Virus record (IMG/VR): IMGVR_UViG_2585427766_000010
Span: 1-11,370 of that record
DNA: 11,370 nucleotides
From: a virus
Lineage: Duplodnaviria; Heunggongvirae; Uroviricota; Caudoviricetes
Strand: one strand, 5' to 3'
Under the pieces are notes generated by a model. It saw nothing but the letters and a program-made list of their open reading frames with translations, had not been told where the DNA came from and made no database searches. The translations under genes and the position numbers were made by a program. Of this stretch, positions 1 through 11,370 are shown in pieces; position 1 is the first letter of the stretch, and every line of letters starts with the position of its first letter.

Positions 1-46
1 CCGCCCACGCAATATTGCCTTCAATTATATTGTGAGAACCGCATAA
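1..46 (+). CDS. Tail fiber protein, extreme C-terminal end only (5' part lies upstream of the window); cassette Sv_c
   Basis: Frame starting at base 2 reads RPRNIAFNYIVRTA then TAA at 44-46, matching the last 14 residues of the two minus-strand fiber cassettes (TRPRNIAFNYIVRAA, TRPRNVAFNYIVRAA). The stop overlaps the tfa ATG at 46 (TAATG). Confidence 0.6.
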   Translation, partial: RPRNIAFNYIVRTA

Positions 47-657
47 TGAATAACGCGATATTAAATGATGACCTTATTGCCGTACAGGCAGGAAACATCG
101 TCGTTTATAACTATGATGGTGAGACACGGGAATATATTTCCGAATCAACTGAATATCTTGCTGTGGGTGTCGGTATTCCGGCAAATTCCTGTTTAGATGC
201 CCCGGGCGCACATAAAGCGGGCTATGCTATCCGCCGTTCGGAGAATTTAAGTTCATGGGAGTATGCGCCAGACCATCGTGGTGAAACCGTCTATAGCACT
301 GACACGGGAAACACCGAAGAAATCACGGCGCTGGGTGACTACCCGAAAACTACAACCACTATCGCCCCGTTAACACCATACGATAAATGGGATGGTGAAA
401 AATGGGTGACAGATACTGAGGCACAACATCGTGCCGCAGTAGAAGCGGCAGAAACCAAGCGCCAGTCACTGGCTGATGCGGCAATGGCTTCCATAAGTCT
501 GATTCAGTTGAAGTTGCAGGCCGGGCGGAAGTTGACGCAGGCAGAAACCACCCGGCTTAATGCCGTGCTGGATTATATAGACGCGCTGAACGCAATGGAT
601 ATAAACATGGTACCAGATATCAACTTGCCGGAAATACCACTGGCAGCAGCCAGTTGA
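46..657 (+). CDS. Tail fiber assembly protein (Tfa; lambda Tfa / Mu U-like chaperone)
   Basis: 203-aa ORF with ATG at 46 and TGA at 655-657. Motifs typical of the Tfa family as I recall them: PDHRGETVY, KWDGEKWVTDTEAQ, and a C-terminal ...MVPDINLPEIP segment. It follows a fiber C-terminus on the same strand with start/stop overlap. Confidence 0.88.
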   Translation: MNNAILNDDLIAVQAGNIVVYNYDGETREYISESTEYLAVGVGIPANSCLDAPGAHKAGYAIRRSENLSSWEYAPDHRGETVYSTDTGNTEEITALGDYPKTTTTIAPLTPYDKWDGEKWVTDTEAQHRAAVEAAETKRQSLADAAMASISLIQLKLQAGRKLTQAETTRLNAVLDYIDALNAMDINMVPDINLPEIPLAAAS

Positions 658-663
658 ATATAA

Positions 664-1140
664 CTAAGCCGCCCTCACGATATAGTTAAATGCAATATTG
701 CGGGGGCGGGTTTCACTACCACCTGTGTTACCAATACTTCCTCGTGAATGAAGCGTTGGTGATGGAATCAAACTCCCTCCTGTATTTGTGGCATCAAGCC
801 CCCTGCCTTGTGTATATGTTTTTTTGAAAATCGTAGCCAACTCCCATTCATCTTTTGTGTCATATCCATCGTTAGCTACAACAATATGGCGGTGTTTTTC
901 CAACATCCCGTTTTGAATGCTCAATAAAGCGCGTGCCGCATCAATTCCTCGCCCATCATCCCAGCCACGGATAAATTCACCGCGTAAATCCGGTAATTTA
1001 TTGGTGGGGTAGGCCTTTGCCAGATTGGGGTACATTTCAGAAGAAAATGCTGCACCGTTACATTTCAGCCAGCCCGTTGGTGGTGTGGCTGAGGGCCATG
1101 GAACAGGCACACCAACGGGCAGTGCAGAGCCTTCCCCCAA
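664..1140 (-). CDS. Alternative tail-fiber C-terminal cassette (Sv_b): promoterless, start-less copy of the fiber distal domain
   Basis: The open frame runs from a stop at 1162-1164 down to TAG at 664-666. The track start at 1140 is a TTG with no Shine-Dalgarno upstream. The first ~65 aa (GLGEGSALPVGVPVPWPSATPPTGWLKCNGAAFSSEM...LPDLRGEFIRGWDDGRG) are near-identical to residues ~219-285 of the upstream fiber; the middle diverges; the last 15 aa are conserved again. Confidence 0.6.
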   Translation of the reverse strand: MGEGSALPVGVPVPWPSATPPTGWLKCNGAAFSSEMYPNLAKAYPTNKLPDLRGEFIRGWDDGRGIDAARALLSIQNGMLEKHRHIVVANDGYDTKDEWELATIFKKTYTQGRGLDATNTGGSLIPSPTLHSRGSIGNTGGSETRPRNIAFNYIVRAA

Positions 1141-1145
1141 ACCAA
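926..1145 (-). repeat. Direct repeat copy A (~220 bp), 5' homology block of cassette Sv_b
   Basis: Aligned by eye against 1440-1659 at a constant 514-bp offset; roughly 88-90% identical, differences mostly transitions. Homology stops abruptly at both ends. Confidence 0.8.
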
Positions 1146-1157
1146 CGTTTTCATGCG
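1132..1157. other. Candidate serine-invertase crossover site (site 2), 12-2-12 layout TTCCCCCAAACC-AA-CGTTTTCATGCG
   Basis: Sits exactly at the upstream edge of the cassette homology and spans the fiber stop codon. The left half-site matches the TTCnnnnAAACC pattern of hix/gix/cix sites as I remember them; the right half-site is degenerate. Confidence 0.4.
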
Positions 1158-2305
1158 GCTCTTACGATGTAATTAAATGCAACGTTGCGAGGGCGAGTTT
1201 CTGTACCTACATTTCCACTAATTTCACCAAACCGTCTTACATTACGAGAGCTAATGGCTCGTAGTGAGGAAGGCACCTTTAAACCGGGTTCGTCTGTTTT
1301 AACTATTCCCCCGTCCCCGTATGTAGCCAGTATTCCAGGGTTTACTCCTTCCCGTGTGCTTCCCGTGGCAAGTCCATCCCCGGTCCATAATTCCATATAG
1401 TGTGCATGATCCAAAATTGTGTGTGGCTGCCAATTAAGCAAAGCGCGGCCAGCATCCACCCCGCGCCCATCATCCCAGCCGCGAATAAATTCTCCCCGTA
1501 AATCCGGTAATTTATTGGCGGGGTAGGCCTTTGCCAGATTGGGGGACATTTCAGAAGAAAATGCTGCACCGTTACATTTCAGCCACCCCGTTGGCGGCGT
1601 GGCTGAAGGCCATGGAACGGGCACACCAACGGGCAGCGCCGAGCCTTCCCCTAAACCAAGGTAATTGAGGACTTCTTTTATACTGCCCATAGCGATAATA
1701 GCGCGACCAATAGCTGTAAGGGTTGTCAGTGCTGCGCGGTCTGCTCCGGTAAAATAAGGCAACCGATCTGCTGCAGTGGCAAGTCCTGCCAGAGCAGTGA
1801 GCGTGGCATCTGCCGGTTGTTTTCCGTTTGCCAGATCGTATGCAGCCTTGACCGCTTTCGGTGTGGCGGCCAGTATTTCAGACGTGCTGTTGATGTCACT
1901 GCTCAATTGTACGGTGCCTTTTGCCGTCAGCGAGGCAGCAGGCACTCCCGTTATCTGACTCCACGGGTGAGTATGGCTGACGGGGGCCTTGCCGGCAGCC
2001 AGGTCATATGCAGCCTTGACGGCCTTTGGTGTGGCGGCCAGCGTTTCAGAGGTGCTGTTGGTGGCACTGCTCAGTTGGGTGAACCCCTTAGCTGTCAGTG
2101 TCGCGTCCGGGTGGTTACGGGAACGTACGTGTTCAGCCAGTGACTGTGCGGCTTCCTCCGTTTTTTTCTTCAGCCATTTCGTCCTGTTTGCCAGTTGCCG
2201 GGGGGCTCGATTTGATATCCCGTCTGCACCACCCAGAACCGGATCTGATGTCTCCAGTTGATAGATATTTTCTTCCCACTTTTCTGTTTCATTCAGGTTT
2301 CCCAT
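1151..2305 (-). CDS. Tail fiber protein (Sc constant part plus Sv_a distal cassette)
   Basis: Long ORF with stop TGA at 1151-1153. Preferred start is the ATG at 2305-2303, which has GGGAG 9 nt upstream; the track start (TTG at 2311) is too close to that GGGAG to be likely. Contains two copies of the phage fiber repeat (LTAKG..QLSS...STSE.LAATPKAVKAAYDLA.GK) and a collar-like domain (WLKCNGAAF...LPDLRGEFIRGWDDGRG). Confidence 0.88.
   Translation of the reverse strand: MGNLNETEKWEENIYQLETSDPVLGGADGISNRAPRQLANRTKWLKKKTEEAAQSLAEHVRSRNHPDATLTAKGFTQLSSATNSTSETLAATPKAVKAAYDLAAGKAPVSHTHPWSQITGVPAASLTAKGTVQLSSDINSTSEILAATPKAVKAAYDLANGKQPADATLTALAGLATAADRLPYFTGADRAALTTLTAIGRAIIAMGSIKEVLNYLGLGEGSALPVGVPVPWPSATPPTGWLKCNGAAFSSEMSPNLAKAYPANKLPDLRGEFIRGWDDGRGVDAGRALLNWQPHTILDHAHYMELWTGDGLATGSTREGVNPGILATYGDGGIVKTDEPGLKVPSSLRAISSRNVRRFGEISGNVGTETRPRNVAFNYIVRAA
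1440..1659 (-). repeat. Direct repeat copy B (~220 bp), 5' homology block of cassette Sv_a inside the fiber gene
   Basis: Partner of 926-1145; same orientation, 514 bp apart. Confidence 0.8.
1646..1671. other. Candidate serine-invertase crossover site (site 1), TTCCCCTAAACC-AA-GGTAATTGAGGA, at the Sc/Sv_a junction
   Basis: Same left half-site and AA core as site 2; the right half (GGTAATTGAGGA) partly matches the GGTTTnnGAnAA pattern. Lies in the same codon phase as site 2 relative to the cassette frames (core in codon positions 2-3 of ...NYL / ...ENV before GLGEGS). Confidence 0.45.
1820..2098 (-). repeat. Tandem in-frame repeat inside the fiber shaft (two units, period 168 bp / 56 aa)
   Basis: tgcagccttgac recurs at 1841 and 2009; the encoded units LTAKGFTQLSSATNSTSETLAATPKAVKAAYDLAAGK and LTAKGTVQLSSDINSTSEILAATPKAVKAAYDLANGK match the common phage tail fiber repeat. 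Confidence 0.75.
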
Positions 2306-2307
2306 AA

Positions 2308-2886
2308 TCAACTGCTCCCGTGGTTATAACTGCCATCATGGATGGCGGTATTGTTATAGCGAATGGCCACAGACTGATACTCCAGGCTGGCCAGATGGCA
2401 GCGGGCCGGTGCAAATGCAGCCAGCGTCTGACGCAGCATCGCGGCCTGATCGTTAGTAATGGGCTGTTTCAGAATAACGCGATAAACTGCCCAGGCGGCT
2501 GCATCTCCATGAACAAACAGTCCGTTATAGCTGCGATTGCCGTCGTAACTGAGACGACCTGTGCCTTCAATCAGATCCACTTCACCAAAGCCAAAACGGC
2601 GGATAACTTCCCGGATTGACCACGGCGTCCCTTTATACCGGTGCAGTTCGATGGCTGCTTTTATAAGCATGCGGCGAACATCGTCCGATTCCGCCAGCTC
2701 CCAGCCATCGCCAGACAGTGAGAACTGCTCGCCCAGCCATGGCAGCGCGGAACTGTCGACGATATCGACGAGAAAGACCATCAGTACGCTCAGGTCGATG
2801 TTATCCAGCCGTCCTGCCAGTCTTCCCAGCGTCCTGAGACTGATATCACCCTCAAGCGGTGGCGGGAGTTGTAATGGCTCAGTCAT
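2308..2886 (-). CDS. Baseplate/tail protein, P2 gpI-like (Mu gp48-like)
   Basis: 192-aa ORF, ATG at 2886-2884 with GGAG upstream. Its stop overlaps the fiber start region and its start overlaps the gpJ 3' end by 8 bp. Size and position (between the J-like gene and the fiber) fit gpI. Confidence 0.8.
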   Translation of the reverse strand: MTEPLQLPPPLEGDISLRTLGRLAGRLDNIDLSVLMVFLVDIVDSSALPWLGEQFSLSGDGWELAESDDVRRMLIKAAIELHRYKGTPWSIREVIRRFGFGEVDLIEGTGRLSYDGNRSYNGLFVHGDAAAWAVYRVILKQPITNDQAAMLRQTLAAFAPARCHLASLEYQSVAIRYNNTAIHDGSYNHGSS

Positions 2887-3982
2887 CAGACACTCCAGTC
2901 ATGTTAAGAGTGATTGCCGTACAGTTTGCCCATTCGTTTTCTGCCACCACCCGCAGTGCCGGTGTCACCAGTTCAACCTGGTACACCCCGGAAACGGACA
3001 ATGCACTGATAATCTGGCTGGGGACAATATCGCGCCCCAGCGTGGCGGCACGTGATGCCACCCAGTTCTGTATGGCGCTGTTAGCGGCATCTTTTACAGA
3101 CCTGGCATCCTGATCACGATAGATCGTAATCTTGGCTTCAATGGTGTAATCCACCTTCACTGGTGTTTTAGCCCGCACTGTATCAGTGAGTGGCCTGACT
3201 TTCTCATCAGAGCAGAAACTCTCTACCAGCGTGAGAACACCGCCGTCCGGCAGACCGGTACTGAGCAGCGGATACAGATCTACGGTCCCGGGAACCGGGG
3301 AAAGCACAGCAACATCGACAATGTTGGGATGGGCCTGCATGGCATGAAAGCGGTATGCGCCACGGCTTCCGGCATTGGTGAATGACTCCGGGGCCAGCCT
3401 GATACGCTCCCGGAGCCTGTCATCGTCTTCCTGTTCTGAACCGCCGGAACTGGCCGTCAGATTGCTCACCAGCAGGTCGACGTTATCAATCTCATCGAGT
3501 AACTGACTGACCTGCGCAGGTTGCCAGCCGTTACCAGCGGTACCGGGTTCGGTACAGGTGGACGTGACATTGACCAGCAGCAATCCGGCCTTCAGTACCA
3601 CATCTGTATCGGTGGCAAAAATAACGCTGTCGGAAGCGCTGACGCGGGTGCCTGCCGGGATCAGCACATCAATGGCCAGTGCCTCATCTACGGAGAACTG
3701 GAGCGTGGTAGTGGCAGGCTGCGCGGCAAGACGGTATACACCGACCAGTTCACCGAGGTAATCAATCATCGGCTCACGGGCAAAGGCGACCAGATTCTGC
3801 TTTGCTGCCTCCTGTACCGCAACCCTGACCAGCATTTCGCGATAGGCCCACAGATCAATCAGCAGACGTTCTGCCTGTGCCGGGTACAGCGTTTTGCCGG
3901 TATCCGCTTCATACTTCGCAATCATTTCTGCCGTGATTTTGTCGGCATCGCGTTCAATAAAATCGGGTTCTGTCAGCGCCAT
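2879..3982 (-). CDS. Baseplate J-like protein (P2 gpJ / Mu gp47 family)
   Basis: 367-aa ORF, ATG at 3982-3980 with AGGAG upstream. Position between W-like and I-like genes and size are typical of baseplate wedge J proteins. Confidence 0.85.
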   Translation of the reverse strand: MALTEPDFIERDADKITAEMIAKYEADTGKTLYPAQAERLLIDLWAYREMLVRVAVQEAAKQNLVAFAREPMIDYLGELVGVYRLAAQPATTTLQFSVDEALAIDVLIPAGTRVSASDSVIFATDTDVVLKAGLLLVNVTSTCTEPGTAGNGWQPAQVSQLLDEIDNVDLLVSNLTASSGGSEQEDDDRLRERIRLAPESFTNAGSRGAYRFHAMQAHPNIVDVAVLSPVPGTVDLYPLLSTGLPDGGVLTLVESFCSDEKVRPLTDTVRAKTPVKVDYTIEAKITIYRDQDARSVKDAANSAIQNWVASRAATLGRDIVPSQIISALSVSGVYQVELVTPALRVVAENEWANCTAITLNMTGVSDD

Positions 3983-4320
3983 AGCAGCTCCTGAGTCCGG
4001 GTCTGTCCGTCTGAGCCTTTCCAGCTCACCCGGAGCGTAAGATGTTCGCCGTCGACGGCGGGTTTAACTGACATAAGCTGGCAGCGGGGCTCCCAGCGCC
4101 GGATGGCATCGACGGATTCGCGCACCACATGCGGAATGGCCCGGTCTACAGGCCAGTCGATATAAAGATGCAGATTGCTGCCGAACTCCGGGCGATGCGG
4201 GTCGCTGCCGCGGGGAGTCCGCAGGATAATTTGAATCGCCTGCCGGATATCATCCAGCCCCCGGACAATTTCGCCGGGAGCCTGCAGGGTCGGTTGCCAG
4301 AATACTGAGGTTGTTTTCAT
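3973..4320 (-). CDS. Baseplate wedge protein, GPW/gp25-like (P2 gpW / Mu gp46 family)
   Basis: 115-aa ORF, ATG at 4320-4318. Size and the ...IRQAIQIILRTPRGSDPHRPEFGSNLH... segment resemble the GPW/gp25 family; overlaps the J-like gene by 10 bp. Confidence 0.8.
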   Translation of the reverse strand: MKTTSVFWQPTLQAPGEIVRGLDDIRQAIQIILRTPRGSDPHRPEFGSNLHLYIDWPVDRAIPHVVRESVDAIRRWEPRCQLMSVKPAVDGEHLTLRVSWKGSDGQTRTQELLWR

Positions 4321-4338: not shown

Positions 4339-4374
4339 GTGCGGGAACGCTGATATTAAAGGCGTTTAAAAAGC

Positions 4375-4971
4375 TCAGTGGGAGTGGTGGCTGGAGTTTT
4401 CGCCATCAGACAACATACTGCCCGTGGCATGGGCATTCCCTTTAATCTCGATATTGCCATGGATGGTCGCGGTAACCCCTTCACCACCAGAACCCGCCAT
4501 GCCTCCTTCGTAAATCAGCTTACCCCTGACACGCAGATCTCCGGTAAGTTCGGTTTCCGGTGCGTCAATCGTGGCTTTCTGTGTTTTCAATACCACATCA
4601 GCACCACACTCAATGACAATATGCTCAATGCCGCCCCGGATGGTCAGAGTGTGCGTCTTCCGGTTGTAGCTGTACTCTGCACCATCAGCAAACCGGGTTC
4701 CCCGGATATTTTTGTCACTGAACGGTGGTTTATCGACGTCTGAATACACCGCGCCCAGAATAACACCATCCTCGCCGTTGGCATCGAGCAGCACCTCAAC
4801 CTGCTCCCCCACGTCAGGGAGCCAGTAATCTTTGTTATCCTGGGTATTGCGCTGCAGCACGTTAAGCCAGTTTGTGCGCAGGTTATCGCATTCAGGCAGA
4901 CGAACGCGGGCCTGAACCCTGTCGGCATCAACGGCACTGACCGTACCGACCTGACGAGTGACACCAGTCAT
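4375..4971 (-). CDS. Baseplate assembly/spike protein V (P2 gpV / Mu gp45 family)
   Basis: 198-aa ORF, ATG at 4971-4969 with AAGGAG upstream and ATGA overlap with the gpD-like stop. The ...WLPDVGEQVEVLLDANGEDGVILGAVYSD... N-domain and a C-terminal spike region resemble gpV. Confidence 0.82.
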   Translation of the reverse strand: MTGVTRQVGTVSAVDADRVQARVRLPECDNLRTNWLNVLQRNTQDNKDYWLPDVGEQVEVLLDANGEDGVILGAVYSDVDKPPFSDKNIRGTRFADGAEYSYNRKTHTLTIRGGIEHIVIECGADVVLKTQKATIDAPETELTGDLRVRGKLIYEGGMAGSGGEGVTATIHGNIEIKGNAHATGSMLSDGENSSHHSH

Positions 4972-6122
4972 TTTTTCTTCTCCTTAATCACCGTCGATGT
5001 ACTGCCATCCGGGTGATAAACCGTGAGTTTCTGAGTTTTTTGTTTTTTCCCTCTTGTGACTGGCCCCCGTGCCACTTCCAGCTCTGTGGTGTAGCCGCTG
5101 TTACGGTCAAACGCATGGCGGGCAGTGGTTATGAGCCATGGCCCGGATAACTGCCCAAAACCCACCAGTTCAATTTTGTTGCCTGCTGTCAGTTGAGGTG
5201 TTCCCGTCAGCGTCAGGGAGCCGTTCTGCTGGTATTCGTTATGTCTGGCCAGTGCTGAATCCGCTTTAATCCGGGCACTGTCCGGGTCGCTGACGCGGCT
5301 GTTAACTTTAAGTGAGTCAGCGCTGGTAACCTTACCACCTTTGAGCTTTTTGTCGCTTTCACGGGTACCACCATCAGCTTCGTAGACGATCAGTTTTTTA
5401 CTGCTGCTTTTCTGGTGTTTTACCTTTGCAGATTTATAGACCCGGTTGATGGTGTCACGCAGGGAAAAGCGGGCCACATCCTGCGGTTTTAACTGCCTGA
5501 CCGGCTCCTGACTGCGCAGTGTGGCCAGATGAGAAAAAATCAGCTGGTCACTGACCACTTTCACTGCATAACCATACTCGCTGGCCAGCCGGCGCAGAAA
5601 ACCCACGTCGGTTTCAGCATACTGGGTCACCCGGTCGATTCTGATGGACTCAATGCTGCCCACCAGTTTCAGTCGGTGCTTTCTGGCAATCCGCCCCGCA
5701 ACAGCTGCCAGCGTGGTGTTCTCAAAACCACGACTGGTTTTAGTCCGCAGGGCACTGTTAACCGAGGTGGCCACCCCACGGATAGAAACAACGGAAGCGG
5801 GCGAACTCACTTCGATCTCGTCTATAGAGAACGTACCGCAGGACAGCAGCTTCTCGCCCTGATAGCCCATTTTCAGCGTCAGCGTGTCACCCTTGCCCGG
5901 ATACCATTTATCCAGCCAGCGGCCATCGGTGTCGTCCAGCTCCACCTCAATGGTATCGGACTCATTTTTGATGTTATCGCTCCAGGTCACACGGGTGACA
6001 TAAGGCGCGATATCAGAGGTGATGTTTTTCTGCAGATACCACAAAGTGAACACCGGTGTCAGCACATCGCTGACGCCGGTTAACGCTGATGTGACTTGCG
6101 CAGTGCTGTTTATCTCAGCCAT
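4968..6122 (-). CDS. Late control gene D-like tail protein (baseplate hub; P2 gpD / Mu gp44 family)
   Basis: 384-aa ORF, ATG at 6122-6120. Size and position immediately upstream of gpV are characteristic; Lys-rich C-terminus. Confidence 0.82.
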   Translation of the reverse strand: MAEINSTAQVTSALTGVSDVLTPVFTLWYLQKNITSDIAPYVTRVTWSDNIKNESDTIEVELDDTDGRWLDKWYPGKGDTLTLKMGYQGEKLLSCGTFSIDEIEVSSPASVVSIRGVATSVNSALRTKTSRGFENTTLAAVAGRIARKHRLKLVGSIESIRIDRVTQYAETDVGFLRRLASEYGYAVKVVSDQLIFSHLATLRSQEPVRQLKPQDVARFSLRDTINRVYKSAKVKHQKSSSKKLIVYEADGGTRESDKKLKGGKVTSADSLKVNSRVSDPDSARIKADSALARHNEYQQNGSLTLTGTPQLTAGNKIELVGFGQLSGPWLITTARHAFDRNSGYTTELEVARGPVTRGKKQKTQKLTVYHPDGSTSTVIKEKKK

Positions 6123-6322
6123 GGGGCAATATCCTCTTCTGTACGGGCTTCTTCAGCCTCAATCACCGGGATCAGTAACAACAGCCCGGAGGGCAGCACC
6201 GGCGTGATGGCCACGTGCGGATTGGCGGCAATAATCCGGGGATAGCCCAGCGGGTCACCGTAGTACTGCCATGCCAGCGAATCCCAGCGCTCTCCGTCAC
6301 GGGTAACATGTTCAAGAAACAT
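6110..6322 (-). CDS. Tail protein X-like (P2 gpX family, LysM-like)
   Basis: About 70 aa. Preferred start is the ATG at 6322-6320 (the track's 6325 start is GTG). The ...WDSLAWQYYGDPLGYPRIIAANP...LPSG...IPVIE pattern resembles gpX; 1-bp overlap with the upstream gene's stop (TGATG). Confidence 0.7.
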   Translation of the reverse strand: MFLEHVTRDGERWDSLAWQYYGDPLGYPRIIAANPHVAITPVLPSGLLLLIPVIEAEEARTEEDIAPWLR

Positions 6323-7206
6323 CACACACTCCTCGTCAGTATTCTGGCGGCCATTGCACTTAATCCCGGAGACATGCGGTTGAATGCTGTGCCGGCGGCG
6401 TTAAGCTGCCCGGAAACGGTATCCAGAGCATCTGCAATATTTCTTTTGTCCACACCACTCAGCGCAGACTGTGCCTGCTGTACATACGTGGCTGCTTCGC
6501 TGGCTGTTCTGGCCAGACTGATGGCATCGGGCATGGATTCAGAGAGTGCGTTAAACGCCGGAACACTTTTCCCCAGAGCCCCGGAGATATTACCCAGTCC
6601 GCTCATCAGCCCCGGCACACGGGTCAGTGCGACAACGGGGTTATCCTTCATTTTCTGTGTCACCCGAACGGCGCTGATAGTGGTCTGGAGTACAGACTGC
6701 GCCTGTTTCGCATAGTTGACGCCGTTGCGGATGAACTGCGCCACCCCTGAAGGTGAAGGTATGGCACCGGAGACCGCCCCGACACCCGGGAGCTTCGTGC
6801 GTATTGCCGGTGGTTGCAGAGGATTTTTCGGGTCACCGGTGTATTCCCGGAGAGACACGGTGGCACTGACAGCCAGCACGTTGCCGGTACTGTCAGTCTG
6901 CTCGCTGGTTGCAGTCACATCGGTAATCACGAACCAGCCGCGATAGTCACCGTTGCCGAAGACCAGCGCCAGTGCCTGATGGGCTTTCATGGCTGTTCGC
7001 AGTCTCGCCAGCTCCACATCGGGTACACAATAATGCTGATGGAAAACCAGAGTTATCTGGATTTCGTCCAGCCTGTCGCCGACGAACTGCAGGCCAGGCT
7101 TACCCCCGATGCGGGCATGCTCCGCATAATCGACGCCGAACGTGGCCTCGAAGCCGTCCCAGTAGGTAATCAGCTCAAACTCAATATCACCCAGTACGGC
7201 AAACAT
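6322..7206 (-). CDS. Tail protein with P2 gpU-like N-terminal domain and an Ala/Ser-rich C-terminal extension
   Basis: 294-aa ORF, ATG at 7206-7204, abutting the tape measure stop. The N-terminal ~130 aa (MFAVLGDIEFELITYWDG...GLQFVGDRLDEIQITLVFHQ) resemble gpU; the C-terminal ~160 aa are low-complexity. Confidence 0.65.
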   Translation of the reverse strand: MFAVLGDIEFELITYWDGFEATFGVDYAEHARIGGKPGLQFVGDRLDEIQITLVFHQHYCVPDVELARLRTAMKAHQALALVFGNGDYRGWFVITDVTATSEQTDSTGNVLAVSATVSLREYTGDPKNPLQPPAIRTKLPGVGAVSGAIPSPSGVAQFIRNGVNYAKQAQSVLQTTISAVRVTQKMKDNPVVALTRVPGLMSGLGNISGALGKSVPAFNALSESMPDAISLARTASEAATYVQQAQSALSGVDKRNIADALDTVSGQLNAAGTAFNRMSPGLSAMAARILTRSV

Positions 7207-9106
7207 CAGCGGTACTCCTTACGTTGTTTCTGAGCCAGCAGACGCTCCAGCATTTTTTCCAGCTCATGCAGACTCATATTCAGGGCACCAGTCAGTCCTG
7301 CAGGCGCTGTGGTTTCCCTGCCATTGAGGAAAAACTGAGGATTAAAGCTGACCTGGATACCACCAGACGTTCCACCGCCGGTTGCAGCTGCACCACGGCC
7401 TGAATATCCGGCAGCCAGGATTTCAGGCGAGGGGATACGGGGAACATCCGGTGTCATCTCATTTGCCAGACGTTGCCCTGGTAAAATCGATGCCCGGGTG
7501 GAGAGCGGAATAGCGGGCATGGAAGACAAACTATTGATTACGGCTCCGATCGCATTTTTAGCAGACGACATAAACCCATTGATATCGGGCAACGGCATAC
7601 TGAAGCGAACACCTGAAGTGTTATCCCGTATTTCTGGCCCCTGGATGCTCACGGGCATTCTGGGGAGCAGTTCACTGGCCATTCGCTGCCCGGCCAGAGC
7701 TGCAAGCGGAGTGGTCCGCTGCAGGCCAATGGCGGCCCCCTGCGCGATATTGTCACCAAAGCCCATAAACACGCGGCTCGGCGAATGAATGCCCAGCTTT
7801 TCGCTGAACCAGCCACTGATGCTGTCACCCATTCCGGTTACACTGGATTTGAGCGACTCCCATTTGTTTTTGATACCGTTAATCAGACCATCGACAAGAT
7901 GGCCACCGAAGTCGGTAAACTTTGCCGGCAGATCAACACCAAGATATTTCAGCGCAGCTGCAAAGGCTTTATAGAGCAGGCCTGCCGGCGACCAGTTAAT
8001 CAGTAACTTACCAATTCCCACAATGCCGCCGTTAAAGGCTTCCTGAATGTCTGCCCAGCGCTGTTTAAACCAGCCACTGACTGCCCCCCAGTTGCGGTAG
8101 ATAAGGTAAGCTGCTGCCGCGACAGCGGTGATAACGAGACCGATGGGATTCATCATCAGCGCACGTCCAATCCAGAGAACAGCACGTCCGGCGAGCATAA
8201 TTCCGCGAACCAGCCCCTCGGAGAGCACGCCACTCAGTGTTCTGGCTCCTCTGGCGACGGCGCTAAATCCGGTCACCAGCCAGCGGAGCTTACCGCCTTG
8301 CCCCAGTGCGAGCGACAGACGAAGCCAGTTGGCCCGAAGTAAAACAGCATTTTTCCAGACACTTACAAAGGGGGAAATAAGGAGATTCAGCCCCAGTTTG
8401 AGACCAACAGTCGCTATCTTAATCGCAAGGAGCGCACTGATGAGCTTAAAAGCCCCACTGACAAATTGCGGGTGAGTCGCTACCCAGTGTTTTGCCCCCT
8501 GAATGAGTGGAAGCAGTTCCTGAGTCAAAGAAATAAAAGATGGAGCTAATTGATCGCCCAGCGTAATTGCCAGATCGCGACTGCTGACCATAAGTGTTTT
8601 AGTGGCTTCAAGGGGAGATTTCAGCCGCTGATCATAAGCACTGGCAAGCAAATCGTTATCCGCAGCCCTGAGAGCACCGGCACGGATCTCTCGATATCTG
8701 TCCATGTTGGCCAGCATCGGGCGGATAAATGCCATGACCTGCATATCCGCGAACATATCGCCCAGACCAAAGTTTTTCGCCAGAGCCTGAAGTGCCTCAT
8801 CTCTTGCCGTATCATTCTTTATTTTCATGGCTGATTTGAAGCCGGCCAGCGCTTCGGGGCTTTTGGCATTGAGGTAACGTTCTATAACACTCAACATCCC
8901 TTCAATCGGAGAGATCCCCGCAGCTTTATAACTCGCAATAGATCCCTGCAAATCAATACCCAGATCAGCAAACTGTTTCTGAGTATCGCGGGCAAAAATT
9001 TTGGTAAGAAAGTTTTTAAAATTATTGGCTGCTTCGTCGGTGGAACCTGCACCGATTTTTGCTATCTGGAGACTGGCCCCGATTTCAGCAACAGCCTCTT
9101 TTCCAC
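7206..9106 (-). CDS. Tail tape measure protein, 5'-interrupted by the IS66-family insertion (probable pseudogene/fragment)
   Basis: Stop TGA at 7208-7206. The frame is open upstream well past the track start (TTG at 8951) to about 9106, where the sequence becomes the IS end (in-frame stop at 9155-9153 inside the IS). Contains the GIHSPSRVF-type motif and long hydrophobic helices typical of tape measure proteins. Confidence 0.75.
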
Positions 9107-9192
9107 TGTAAGCGTAAAGCCAATGCCGTCTGTAACACCTGCTCCTTGCAGACTAAATTAGAGCTCCTTCTAAATTAGACGGAGTTCTATTG

Positions 9193-9627
9193 ATGGATAA
9201 ACCTACAGACTGGCGCTCCGGAACCCGCCGGATATTTTCTAATGAATTTAAACTTCATATGGTTGAACTGGCTTCGAAACCAAATGCCAATGTTGCACAA
9301 CTGGCCCGGGAACATGGCGTTGATAACAACCTGATTTTTAAATGGCTACGCCTCTGGCAAAGAGAAGGACGTATTTCTCGTAGAATGCCTCCAACTATTG
9401 TAGGCCCTACAGTATCACAATCTTTTCCGGCCTCTCCGACTCTGGTTCCAGTGGAACTTATCGACACCCCGCGCTGTGCTACAGATGCTCCTGCTCCGGA
9501 GGCATTATCAGTTGCTTGTGCAGCTTCCTGCCATGTGGAATTCCATTACGGTAAAATGATGCTGGAAAATCCTTCACCAGAGCTGCTCACGGTGTTGATC
9601 CGTGAGCTGACCGGGAGGGGACGATGA
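9193..9627 (+). CDS. tnpA: IS66-family accessory protein TnpA (orf1)
   Basis: ATG at 9193 with GGAG 8 nt upstream (the track start at 9190 is TTG); about 144 aa. Stop overlaps the tnpB start (ATGA at 9624-9627). Confidence 0.8.
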   Translation: MDKPTDWRSGTRRIFSNEFKLHMVELASKPNANVAQLAREHGVDNNLIFKWLRLWQREGRISRRMPPTIVGPTVSQSFPASPTLVPVELIDTPRCATDAPAPEALSVACAASCHVEFHYGKMMLENPSPELLTVLIRELTGRGR

Positions 9628-9974
9628 TTTCACTCCCATCAGGTACCCGTATCTGGCTCGTTGCCGGCGTTACTGATATGCGTAAATCCTTCAACGGTCT
9701 GGGGGAGCAGATACAGCATGTGCTGGATGATAACCCCTTCTCCGGTCACCTGTTTATCTTCCGTGGCCGACGGGGAGACACGATTAAAATCCTGTGGGCT
9801 GATGCTGATGGTCTGTGCCTGTTCACCAAACGCCTTGAGGAAGGTCAGTTTATCTGGCCTGCGGTGCGTGACGGTAAGATATCCATTACCCGCTCGCAAC
9901 TGGCAATGCTCCTCGATAAGCTGGACTGGCGTCAGCCAAAAACATCCCGCCTTAACGCACTGACAATGTTGTAA
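9624..9974 (+). CDS. tnpB: IS66-family accessory protein TnpB (orf2)
   Basis: 116 aa; MISLPSGTRIWLVAGVTDMRKSFNGL...IKILWADADGLCLF... is the characteristic IS66 Orf2 sequence as I recall it. Confidence 0.85.
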   Translation: MISLPSGTRIWLVAGVTDMRKSFNGLGEQIQHVLDDNPFSGHLFIFRGRRGDTIKILWADADGLCLFTKRLEEGQFIWPAVRDGKISITRSQLAMLLDKLDWRQPKTSRLNALTML

Positions 9975-10004
9975 AAAACTCCTGACCGCATTATAAAAAC
10001 GGCC

Positions 10005-11370
10005 ATGAGTCAGAAATACCTCATTCGCATCGCTGAGCTGGAAAGGCTGCTCTCTGAGCAGGCTGAAGCCCTCCGTCAGAAAGACCAGCAACTGAGTCTG
10101 GTTGAAGAGACGGAGGCCTTCCTGCGCTCTGCACTGGCACGTGCCGAAGAAAAGATCGAAGAAGATGAACGGGAAATAGAGCATCTGCGGGCTCAGATAG
10201 AAAAACTGCGCCGGATGCTGTTCGGAACCCGTTCTGAAAAACTGCGTCGTGAGGTTGAACAGGCTGAAGCCCTGCTGAAACAACGCGAGCAGGAAAGCGA
10301 TCGTTACAGTGGGCGTGAGGATGACCCGCTGGTTCCCCGCCAGTTGCGACAGTCGCGCCATCGTCGTCCGTTACCGGCACATCTCCCCCGTGAAATATAC
10401 CGCCTGGAGCCTGAAGAAAGCTGTTGCCCGGAGTGTGGCGGTGAGCTGGATTATCTGGGGGAAGTCAGCGCAGAACAACTGGAACTGGTGAGCAGCGCCC
10501 TGAAAGTGATCCGCACAGAACGGGTAAAAAAAGCCTGTACAAAATGTGACTGCATCGTTGAAGCACCGGCACCATCCCGTCCGATAGAGCGTGGTATCGC
10601 GGGCCCGGGGTTACTTGCCCGCGTGTTAACGGGAAAATACTGCGAACACCTGCCACTGTATCGTCAGAGTGAAATCTTTGCCCGCCAGGGTGTCGAACTG
10701 AGCCGTGCCTTACTCTCCAACTGGGTTGATGCGTGCTGCCAGTTAATGACGCCGCTGAATGATGCCCTGTACAGTTATGTGATGAACACCCGCAAGGTTC
10801 ACACTGATGACACACCAGTAAAAGTACTGGCACCGGGCAGGAAGAAGGCGAAAACAGGATATATCTGGACGTATGTCCGGGATGACCGAAATGCCGGTTC
10901 GCCAGAACCTCCGGCGGTCTGGTTCGCCTACTCACCGGACCATCAGGGTAAACATCCGGAGCAACACCTTCGTCCCTTCCGGGGTATCCTGCAGGCAGAT
11001 GCGTTCGCAGGTTACGATCGGCTGTTCAGTGCCGAACGTGAAGGCGGCGCGTTGACGGAAGCAGGATGCTGGGCTCATGCGCGGCGCAAAATCCACGATG
11101 TATATATCAGTACCAAAAGCGCGACGGCGGAAGAAGCACTGAAACTAATCGGCGAACTGTACGCCATTGAGCACGAAATACGCGGGTTGCCGGTGTCTGA
11201 ACGCCTGGCGGTCAGGCAAATGCAGAGTAAACCGCTACTGACTTCCCTGTATAAGCTGATGCAGGAGAAAGAACACACGTTATCGAAAAAATGCCGTCTG
11301 AGAGATGCGTTCCGGTATATCAGGAAGCACTGGGTTGCGTTGTGCAACTTCTGTGATGACGGTCTGGCGG
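10005..11370 (+). CDS. tnpC: IS66-family transposase TnpC (orf3), 3'-partial (runs off the window)
   Basis: ATG at 10005, open to the end of the window (over 455 codons), so absent from the stop-delimited ORF track. Has an N-terminal coiled-coil/leucine-zipper-like region and a CPECGG...CTKCDC zinc-ribbon motif, as in IS66 transposases. Confidence 0.8.
   Translation, partial: MSQKYLIRIAELERLLSEQAEALRQKDQQLSLVEETEAFLRSALARAEEKIEEDEREIEHLRAQIEKLRRMLFGTRSEKLRREVEQAEALLKQREQESDRYSGREDDPLVPRQLRQSRHRRPLPAHLPREIYRLEPEESCCPECGGELDYLGEVSAEQLELVSSALKVIRTERVKKACTKCDCIVEAPAPSRPIERGIAGPGLLARVLTGKYCEHLPLYRQSEIFARQGVELSRALLSNWVDACCQLMTPLNDALYSYVMNTRKVHTDDTPVKVLAPGRKKAKTGYIWTYVRDDRNAGSPEPPAVWFAYSPDHQGKHPEQHLRPFRGILQADAFAGYDRLFSAEREGGALTEAGCWAHARRKIHDVYISTKSATAEEALKLIGELYAIEHEIRGLPVSERLAVRQMQSKPLLTSLYKLMQEKEHTLSKKCRLRDAFRYIRKHWVALCNFCDDGLA

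Follow-up and report, generated by a model that had tools for sequence, protein, structure and literature searches.

We analyzed a window of 11,370 nucleotides, which is the entire draft contig JOQO01000076.1 (assembly GCA_000714135.1) of Escherichia coli 5-172-05_S3_C3. The minus strand of the window carries tail genes of a prophage, in which P2 GpU, GPD, GPW, J and I types were found, and the plus strand carries an insertion sequence (IS) that is cut by the contig end. A 3′ remnant of the tape measure protein (TMP) gene is followed by intact gpU-like (6322-7206), gpX-like (6110-6325), gpD-like (4968-6122) and gpV-like (4375-4971) genes, and then by intact gpW-like (3973-4320), gpJ-like (2879-3982), gpI-like (2308-2886) and tail fiber (1151-2311) genes, all on the minus strand. 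The genes from TMP to V overlap or abut without intergenic space, and those of the tightly packed U-X-D-V unit (4375-7206) have the same lengths as in the IS-free relative L001. The module has a single intergenic gap, between V and W, in which a promoter-like element precedes W.

A second contig of the same assembly, JOQO01000066.1 (L007), carries Portal_Mu, Phage_Mu_F and Mu Gp36 alongside P2-type sheath and tube genes. Escherichia phage PhiKM (PQ738613), which is 96% identical and classified as Bcepmuvirus, carries transposase, gam, gemA and C genes. By gene content, the prophage is of the BcepMu-like (Bcepmuvirus) transposable type, which combines Mu-type head and transposition genes with a P2-type contractile tail. 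Identity in the TMP region was 99.5-100% to DLI.5a and 96% to PhiKM. The prophage shares its gene order with PhiKM, the DLI.5a prophage, ST131-type strains such as JJ1886, Klebsiella phage KP12 and Burkholderia phage BcepMu; i.e., Mu-type portal, F and G head genes, P2-type sheath and tube, E/E′ chaperone, TMP, U, X, D, V, W, J, I, fiber and invertase. TMP, a long gene of the P2 gpT / BcepMu gp44 type, lies between the frameshifted tail chaperone (E/E′) and gpU of the contractile-tail module in L001, L007, PhiKM and BcepMu, and a GpU Pfam match lies directly downstream of it in the window. In the Bcepmuvirus relatives, TMP is uninterrupted and 896 aa or longer, whereas here it is split by the IS.

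Insertion sequence and the tape measure gene

Positions 9108-11370 (plus strand) correspond to the first 2263 of the 2541 bp of ISEc43, an IS66-family element common in E. coli, and are 100% identical (0 mismatches over 2263 bp) to the complete element of E. coli RM13322 (L005 3504-5766; whole element at NZ_CP050498.1 1275062-1277602), which is flanked by an 8-bp duplication. The name ISEc43 rests on the RefSeq product name of this matching copy, whose transposase is listed as 'IS66-like element ISEc43 family transposase'. The sequence from 9108 opens with GTAAGCG; the left terminal inverted repeat GTAAGCGTAAAGCCAATGCCG (9108-9128, plus strand) is identical in its first 8 nt to the reverse complement of the right end GTAAGCGTCAACGGAGCACCG, and a right repeat of the GTAAGCG type is present on JOQO01000066.1 and in the complete RM13322 copy. 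Three plus-strand genes follow in a row: tnpA (9193-9627; Pfam HTH_Tnp_1, E=1.9e-10), tnpB (9624-9974; IS66 Orf2-like, PF05717, TnpB_IS66, E=3.1e-36) and tnpC, encoding the DDE transposase (10005 to the contig end at 11370; DDE_Tnp_IS66, E=8.1e-81, with zf-IS66 and LZ_Tnp_IS66). The contig end falls inside tnpC and cuts it after 455 codons, and the CDS of the reference copy has 1614 bp. The last 278 bp of ISEc43 lie beyond the window, and the last 185 bp were found on JOQO01000066.1. The tnpA-tnpB-tnpC order, the GTAAGCG termini and an 8-bp target-site duplication are features of the IS66 family. ISEc43 in RM13322 and in ORF S023 of SGI1-B-Ec1 (PMC6531882) has the same gene order, termini and duplication length, and 8-bp direct repeats made by ISEc43 were reported at other sites (PMC6531882). 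The insertion site is the sole difference between this copy and the others.

On the minus strand, the frame of the ORF ending at 7206 was open past its first possible start (TTG 8951) through 9107. IS-free E. coli DLI.5a has an uninterrupted CDS of 2691 bp, annotated 'phage tail tape measure protein', whose final 1902 bp match the stretch 7206-9107 with 100% identity. Hence 789 nt (263 codons) of the gene precede the break. TMP has 896 aa in IS-free relatives, and ISEc43 is located after codon 263. The 3′ remnant (7206-9107) thus comprises codons 264-896 and the stop, i.e., 633 codons, with no start codon before TTG 8951, no evident ribosome-binding site and no Pfam domain in its 633 aa. Beyond 9107, the frame runs on into the IS (9108-9155, minus strand) for 15 foreign codons to a TAG at 9153-9155. 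The N-terminal piece on the far side of the IS has 266 aa, carries PF10145 (PhageMin_Tail) and ends at a TAA that arises at the boundary between the duplicated target and the IS right end (AGT GGA AAG TAA). This predicted fragment was found exactly as KEL38982.1. GenBank lists the two halves of this one gene as unrelated-looking proteins, KEL38982.1 being named 'tape measure protein' and KEL37986.1 'putative phage tail protein'.

The original prediction, made from the window alone, had placed an IS66-family element within TMP, not ahead of it, had assigned tnpA/B/C to the opposite strand and had read the TMP frame as open up to the GTAAGCG sequence. These points agree with the open frame through 9107, the IS from 9108, the three plus-strand genes opposite a minus-strand TMP and the start of the DLI.5a CDS 789 nt beyond the insertion point. 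The alternative that the IS lies upstream of an intact TMP whose true start is between 8952 and 9106, so that the promoter alone is displaced, draws on TTG 8951 being the first mechanical ORF start and on the domain-free remnant, but it is refuted by the uninterrupted 2691-bp CDS, which has no start codon in that interval and begins 789 nt past the insertion, and by the 266-aa fragment with PF10145 across the IS. We also considered 'partial' TMP proteins of the same 90% clusters (e.g., the 627-aa P0018, 928 contigs) as further truncation alleles and rejected them; they are N-terminal and stop at contig breaks or frameshifts rather than at IS junctions.

Both junctions of the insertion

The left copy of the 8-bp target-site duplication, TTTCCACT, lies at 9100-9107, and the second copy adjoins the IS right end on JOQO01000066.1; the original prediction had anticipated an 8-bp duplication at this place. 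This octamer covers TMP codons 264-266 and is present as a single copy in IS-free L001 (10895-10902). The right junction on JOQO01000066.1 reads CGCTTAC, then TTTCCACT, then GGCAATACC; it is followed by the intact 5′ part of TMP and then by the chaperone, tube, sheath and head genes. The genes flanking the insertion were unchanged in length on both contigs when compared with IS-free relatives. It had been left undecided from the window whether the 5′ part of TMP was displaced or deleted; the duplication and the continuation of the gene on the second contig show that it was displaced. Therefore, the event appears to be a simple insertion in which nothing was deleted.

The left junction recurred base-for-base in two independent metagenome assemblies (L003 and L004), and the matching right junction was also found in five other assemblies, one of them a Logan assembly (L006, L008, L009, L011 and L012). 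These contigs were at least 99.95% identical to the source contigs, the figure for L003 excluding a paralogous fiber repeat. In the source strain, the two junctions lie on separate short-read contigs, and the window and L006 together cover all but 5 nt of the IS. The matching duplication and the orientation of both junctions suggest that a single IS copy physically joins them. The junction was absent from all 5,426 complete E. coli genomes searched, and the exact left-junction 38-mer had no match in species-representative genome contigs or viral contigs.

This absence, and the fact that the window is a draft contig broken off within a multi-copy IS, could be taken as signs of an artefact of assembly in which the repeated element produced a chimeric contig end. 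We consider this very improbable, as the recurrence of the left junction in two independent assemblies and of the right junction in the same assembly and five others argues against it, and an exact 8-bp duplication on either side is what a real IS66-family transposition leaves behind. A later IS-mediated rearrangement, either an inversion or a composite between two ISEc43 copies, would leave the two halves of the tail operon no longer adjacent. Such an event might be considered given that many E. coli genomes carry several copies of ISEc43-like sequence, at up to 42 places in one genome, and that the contigs stop inside the IS without overlap. Nevertheless, orientation and duplication at both junctions are as expected for a simple insertion, and the same junction pair was found in several independent assemblies. 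Nothing calls for a more complex history, which makes a rearrangement improbable, although less so than an artefact.

We therefore favor the explanation that ISEc43 (2541 bp) transposed into TMP of a BcepMu-like prophage in E. coli 5-172-05_S3_C3, duplicating its 8-bp target, deleting no phage DNA and splitting the gene into the 266-aa N-terminal fragment and the 633-codon 3′ remnant, which lacks an early start. The probability of this explanation as a whole, with the consequences for the tail module given below, is, in our estimate, roughly 0.88. The insertion is probably recent, given its perfect duplication, the 100% identity of the IS and flanks without decay. The same IS allele was present in several metagenomes, and the near-identical junction contigs in several other samples suggest that the insertion has been inherited clonally. 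ISEc43 at TMP codon 264 is accordingly a precise lineage marker, seen in several gut metagenomes, and the IS in TMP explains the break of the draft assembly at the window end.

Late-promoter-like element in the V-W gap

A candidate late promoter of the Mor/C type was found in the V-W gap (4369-4327, minus strand), on the downstream side of the IS and in front of W-J-I-fiber. It consists of TTAA (4369-4366), a 6-nt spacer, TTAATATC (4359-4352), a 19-nt spacer and AATACT (4332-4327), and the ATG of W (4320) lies only 6 nt beyond this -10-like hexamer. The bipartite motif, TTAA-N6-TTAAWATC-N19-nAWRCT, has exactly four copies in PhiKM against 0.04 expected, a count made in the same genome in which the motif was derived by comparing intergenic regions, so that KP12 and BcepMu, in which it is conserved, provide its only independent support. 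All four PhiKM copies are intergenic and on the late-gene strand, and the motif is kept at the same four syntenic places in KP12. It is present in a recognizably similar form in BcepMu, where four of the five relaxed matches precede late genes and share their strand; three of these four are at syntenic positions (lys, head and V-W), and the V-W site has 0 mismatches. The source strain has one copy in the V-W gap of the window and two on JOQO01000066.1. Directly upstream of the element in front of the chaperone and TMP genes is a hairpin that resembles a terminator. In addition, PhiKM encodes an activator of the C/Mor family.

The arrangement resembles that of the Mor/C-dependent promoters of phage Mu (Plys, PI, PP and Pmom) in that four elements per genome stand ahead of lysis, head or tail blocks. 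In Mu, the late promoters lack a -35 and combine a -10 hexamer with an activator dyad centered at -43.5 (PMC2582627). The elements described here fit this layout in sequence: A2 and T6 of their -10-like hexamer are conserved, a -35 is absent, and the dyad TTAA-N6-TTAA is centered about 43 bp upstream, at about -42.5 relative to the hexamer. They differ from Mu in the dyad sequence and, at the V-W element, in the 6 nt left between the hexamer and the ATG. The pattern TTAT-N6-ATAA, which we take to be that of the Mu C site, had no match in PhiKM or the window and was dropped as a late-promoter motif for this prophage. A literature search found no published work relevant to BcepMu late promoters or to strain 5-172-05_S3_C3.

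Consequences for the tail module

A consensus scan found no outward sigma-70 promoter at the IS left end, with counts at or below the shuffle expectation. By eye, the minus strand at 9108-9130 has a -35-like hexamer (TTGGCT), but no TAnnnT 16-18 nt away. A scan of the minus strand inside the IS likewise found no strong or convincing intrinsic terminator (at or below shuffle expectation); therefore, some read-through of the IS may be possible.

Tape measure proteins set tail length and are essential for the assembly of long tails. Because of this, the prophage with a broken TMP almost certainly makes no tails and would form no infectious particles. Beyond the premature stop, the transcript would contain about 2.5 kb of antisense IS RNA that is not translated; this should produce classical IS polarity on U, X, D and V, which form the rest of a unit that appears to start at the terminator and promoter boundary 0.5 kb upstream of TMP. 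As a conserved late-promoter-like element lies in the V-W gap downstream of the IS, W-J-I-fiber probably keep their own late promoter and may still be inducible, and U-X-D-V alone would depend on transcription through the IS; i.e., polarity probably reaches only these four genes.

The original prediction had gone further, in that the IS was proposed to silence the whole downstream tail module up to the fiber gene by cutting it off from its only late promoter. The genes from TMP to V, which leave no gaps, and the IS left end, where no sigma-70-like outward promoter was found, are compatible with this proposal. It is opposed by the V-W element, conserved in KP12 and BcepMu, and by P2, in which the baseplate and fiber genes are transcribed from a promoter other than that of the TMP operon. 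Phage Mu, too, has several late promoters rather than one (PMC2582627). We consider silencing of the whole module unlikely, although it is the alternative that survives best. The proposed separation of everything from the TMP remnant to the fiber from any late promoter is thus not fully supported; the tail module would be disabled mainly by the split in an essential structural gene, not by promoter separation.

More tentatively, the IS may knock out only one of two tail units. In this case, Bcepmuvirus tails would be made from two Mor/C-type late promoters, the second of which, so close to the W start codon, would give a leaderless W-J-I-fiber mRNA, baseplate-wedge and fiber proteins would still be made on induction and the fiber segment would still be flipped. 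We regard this as possible but rather doubtful. If true, the prophage would be a partly active remnant and not a silent module.

The insertion resembles classical polar IS insertions and the IS-disrupted genes of E. coli cryptic prophages, in which a late-operon structural gene is interrupted by a stop and a long untranslated insert with the flanks intact. We see no substantive difference from these cases, the polarity here being drawn from general knowledge of them. The event is ordinary prophage decay of an already-known kind, and its importance hardly extends beyond annotation. It marks this prophage copy as defective for tail formation. The conserved four-site motif of Bcepmuvirus, with one site inside the tail module, may be of some practical use when operon structure and polarity are predicted across this widespread group of prophages of E. 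coli, Klebsiella and Burkholderia.

Two further observations were made on the fiber region. A related case was seen in E. coli E302, whose prophage of this type carries ISEc23, which also belongs to the IS66 family, in its tail-fiber gene. Among the carriers of the IS, the fiber segment was found in both orientations.

ISEc43 interrupts the tape measure gene of a BcepMu-like prophage

An exact-protein match identified the window as the entire contig JOQO01000076.1 of E. coli 5-172-05_S3_C3 (assembly GCA_000714135.1). A closely packed P2-type tail module occupies its minus strand. A long ORF ending at 7206, the 3' part of the tail tape measure protein (TMP) gene, is followed on that strand by GpU-like (6322–7206), GpX-like (6110–6325), GpD-like (4968–6122), GpV-like (4375–4971), GpW/gp25-like (3973–4320), GpJ-like (2879–3982), GpI-like (2308–2886) and tail fibre (1151–2311) genes. 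The TMP-remnant frame, which reads ...SGKEAVAEIGASLQIAK... from 9107 downwards, is open far 5' of TTG at 8951 (minus strand), the earliest codon at which it could start; above 9107, it consists of 15 unrelated codons and then TAG at 9153–9155. From 9108 the sequence runs GTAAGCGTAAAGCC..., preceded by the eight bases TTTCCACT. The original prediction had described an open tape measure frame running into the start of an IS, and a direct sequence check agreed with every element of this description.

Three IS genes run rightwards on the plus strand from 9108: tnpA (HTH_Tnp_1), tnpB (IS66 Orf2-like, E = 3e-36) and tnpC, which passes the window end (LZ, zinc-finger and DDE_Tnp_IS66 domains, E = 8e-81). 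A Megablast search of 5,426 complete RefSeq genomes of E. coli returned thousands of matches, all only from ~9105–9107 onwards, and no match across the left junction in any of these genomes. E. coli RM13322 carries a complete IS copy of 2541 bp between 8-bp direct repeats, CAACAACT, with its transposase annotated as 'IS66-like element ISEc43 family'. The first 2263 bp of this copy equal window 9108–11370 without a mismatch, and comparison with it gave the termini as GTAAGCGTAAAGCC... (left) and GTAAGCGTCAACGG... (right, reverse-complemented). The proposed IS66-family assignment was thus borne out by both the transposase domains and the identity to ISEc43, which has already been described with a flanking 8-bp repeat (PMC6531882).

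Window 7206–9107 matched E. coli DLI.5a and E30 at 100% identity and several hundred other genomes at 95–99%; in every genome listed, the matching region fell within a 'phage tail tape measure protein' CDS. In the IS-free DLI.5a prophage, this CDS is 2691 bp long (896 aa), is flanked by the GpE/E' tail chaperone and GpU-like genes, and contains the target TTTCCACT in a single copy. The window holds its last 1902 bp, which places the insertion 789 nt into the CDS, exactly after codon 263. The IS is inside TMP, as had been proposed, and not upstream of it, and IS-free relatives have no TMP start codon between 8952 and 9106. Escherichia phage PhiKM (96% identical), classified in Bcepmuvirus, combines Mu-type terminase, portal, F, G, transposase, gam, gemA and C genes with the same P2-type tail, and its gene order is the same in Burkholderia phage BcepMu. 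The phage with the disrupted TMP is a member of the BcepMu group.

TMP is length-polymorphic. Many relatives, including IAI39 (NC_011750.1) and CE10 (NC_017646.1), carry an extra 261 bp in the 3' part (2163 vs 1902 bp matched), and TMP of E. coli E302 (L014, NZ_AP022362.1; 10263–13214) is 2952 bp vs 2691 bp. Many 'partial' TMP database proteins stop in this length-variable region, probably owing to assembly breaks at an internal repeat.

The 5' part of the gene is displaced, not deleted

The window contig ends at 11370, inside the IS, and the right side of the IS is therefore found only on other contigs. A simple insertion predicts that TMP codons 1–263 are followed by the duplicated AGTGGAAA and the IS end GTAAGCG; the resulting reading, AGT GGA AAG TAA, yields a 266-aa protein equal to residues 1–266 of intact TMP. 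Exactly this fragment was found in the protein collection as KEL38982.1, encoded on JOQO01000066.1 (L007) of the same assembly. The gene order of this companion contig is portal, F, G, head genes, sheath, tube, chaperone and TMP(1–266), with upstream head and tail genes equal in length to those of DLI.5a. The contig ends 185 bp into the IS66 transposase C-terminus on the strand opposite to TMP, and these 185 bp are the last 185 bp of the RM13322 copy. The right junction reads ...GTTGACGCTTAC|TTTCCACT|GGCAATACCCGCC..., indicating that the 5' part of TMP was displaced rather than deleted. Both features anticipated beyond the IS, the in-frame continuation of TMP and the 8-bp target duplication (TTTCCACT on both sides), were recovered. 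GenBank already listed the two TMP halves, each with its own name. IS coverage in the window stops at nucleotide 2263 and resumes at 2269 in L006, the longest right-end contig, leaving no overlap; the matching duplication and orientation, rather than a spanning read, point to the two IS halves being linked.

The left junction occurs base-for-base in two ENA metagenome contigs and the right junction in five further ENA or Logan contigs. All were at least 99.95% identical to the source contigs, for L003 (a left-junction contig) with a paralogous fibre repeat that inflates its mismatches set aside. The pattern fits one insertion event inherited in a lineage. In the metagenome contig L010 (ERZ28595720 scaffold_10177), the same prophage is represented by an allele with more divergence (12 mismatches over 3.8 kb), and the contig stops at 3800, exactly at the ISEc43 insertion point; either this background carries the IS allele too, or IS-bearing and IS-free alleles occur together in that metagenome. 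A parallel case in the same prophage type comes from E302, where a separate IS66-family element, ISEc23, whose own tnpB and tnpC are frameshifted, has inserted into the tail-fibre gene of a close relative of the prophage (L014 2144–4552).

Bcepmuvirus phages share a late-promoter-like motif

Comparison of the five intergenic gaps of PhiKM revealed in four of them a common bipartite element with identical spacing, TTAA-N6-TTAAWATC-N19-nAWRCT. With one mismatch allowed, the motif occurred exactly four times in the 34.7-kb PhiKM genome (5051, 10968, 17233 and 32258) vs 0.04 expected, a count made in the genome of its origin; independent support came from other phages. Each of the four lies on the late-gene strand. 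One precedes the lysis genes, one precedes the head protease/scaffold gene, one lies between the chaperone E gene and the ORF that follows the tube gene, and one is in the V–W gap. Klebsiella phage KP12 (~85% identical, with diverged spacers) carries the element in all four syntenic positions (4872, 10688, 16606 and 23992). In high-GC BcepMu, the element precedes the holin gene and the head protease gene and also lies in the V–W gap (11495, 18822 and 30784), the V–W element showing no mismatch to the relaxed pattern. The companion contig holds the head and chaperone copies, and the window holds one, in the V–W gap (4359–4326, minus strand; upstream TTAA at 4369–4366).

In sequence architecture, the Bcepmuvirus element matches the description of the four C-dependent late promoters of Mu (PMC2582627): its -10-like hexamer has A2 and T6, a -35 is absent, and the dyad is centred ~43 bp upstream. 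PhiKM encodes a C/Mor-family activator. In the V–W gap of the E. coli, Klebsiella and Burkholderia phages (window 4369–4318, minus strand), exactly 6 nt separate the hexamer from the W start codon; if the element is a promoter, W mRNA would be leaderless or nearly so. A perfect 6-bp hairpin, GGGGGC/GCCCCC (window 4338–4321, minus strand), abuts the W ATG and has the V–W hexamer, AATACT, in its loop; a comparable hairpin, GCGGC/GCCGC, occupies the corresponding position in BcepMu. The V–W hairpin may form in RNA when transcription reads through the gap, or be part of the promoter at the DNA level. A terminator-like hairpin, AGGGGCTCCGGCCCCT, with a T-rich run lies directly upstream of the chaperone-side element (L007 9417–9432), which suggests an operon boundary before the chaperone and TMP genes, where the sheath–tube unit would end.

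Predicted consequences for the tail module

The insertion splits TMP into a 266-aa fragment and a 633-codon remnant without a start. Long-tailed phages do not assemble tails without a full tape measure protein; therefore, we infer that the prophage cannot make infectious particles. The original prediction held that the IS separates the whole downstream module, through the fibre, from any upstream late promoter and so probably silences it. The disruption of TMP stood, but the cut-off of everything downstream became less likely, given the promoter-like element in the V–W gap, downstream of the IS. As read from the sequence, the IS would break a unit E-E'-T-U-X-D-V, which begins 0.5 kb upstream of TMP, and U, X, D and V would suffer classical polarity from the premature TAA and 2.5 kb of untranslated antisense IS RNA. 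W-J-I-fibre would have its own activator-dependent promoter. Within the IS, a search revealed neither a sigma-70-like outward promoter nor a strong minus-strand terminator. The earlier interpretation was largely right on what the insertion is and only partly right on how the module is silenced. The case is a textbook example of an IS disrupting a prophage structural gene, with the IS, phage group and phenomenon all already known; the most useful by-product is the conserved late-promoter-like motif, which would imply that the tail module comprises two transcription units.

The fibre region is invertible

Window 1–1662 is an invertible segment containing the fibre C-terminal part, a second fibre tip (664–1140, minus strand) and a fibre-assembly gene (46–657, plus strand). 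Compared with L001 (IS-free DLI.5a; 1375–3036) and IS-carrying L003 (7922–9580), it is flipped; it is collinear with IS-carrying L004. Both orientations thus occur among carriers of the IS allele, and inversion apparently went on after the prophage was disabled. A recombinase/invertase gene adjoins the segment in DLI.5a. Both fibre tips share a 223-nt repeat (926–1148 and 1440–1662, 90%), which likely contains the crossover sites. The fibre gene also has 110-nt direct repeats (1821–1930 and 1989–2098, 78%) encoding a repeated ...ATPKAVKAAYDLA... motif.
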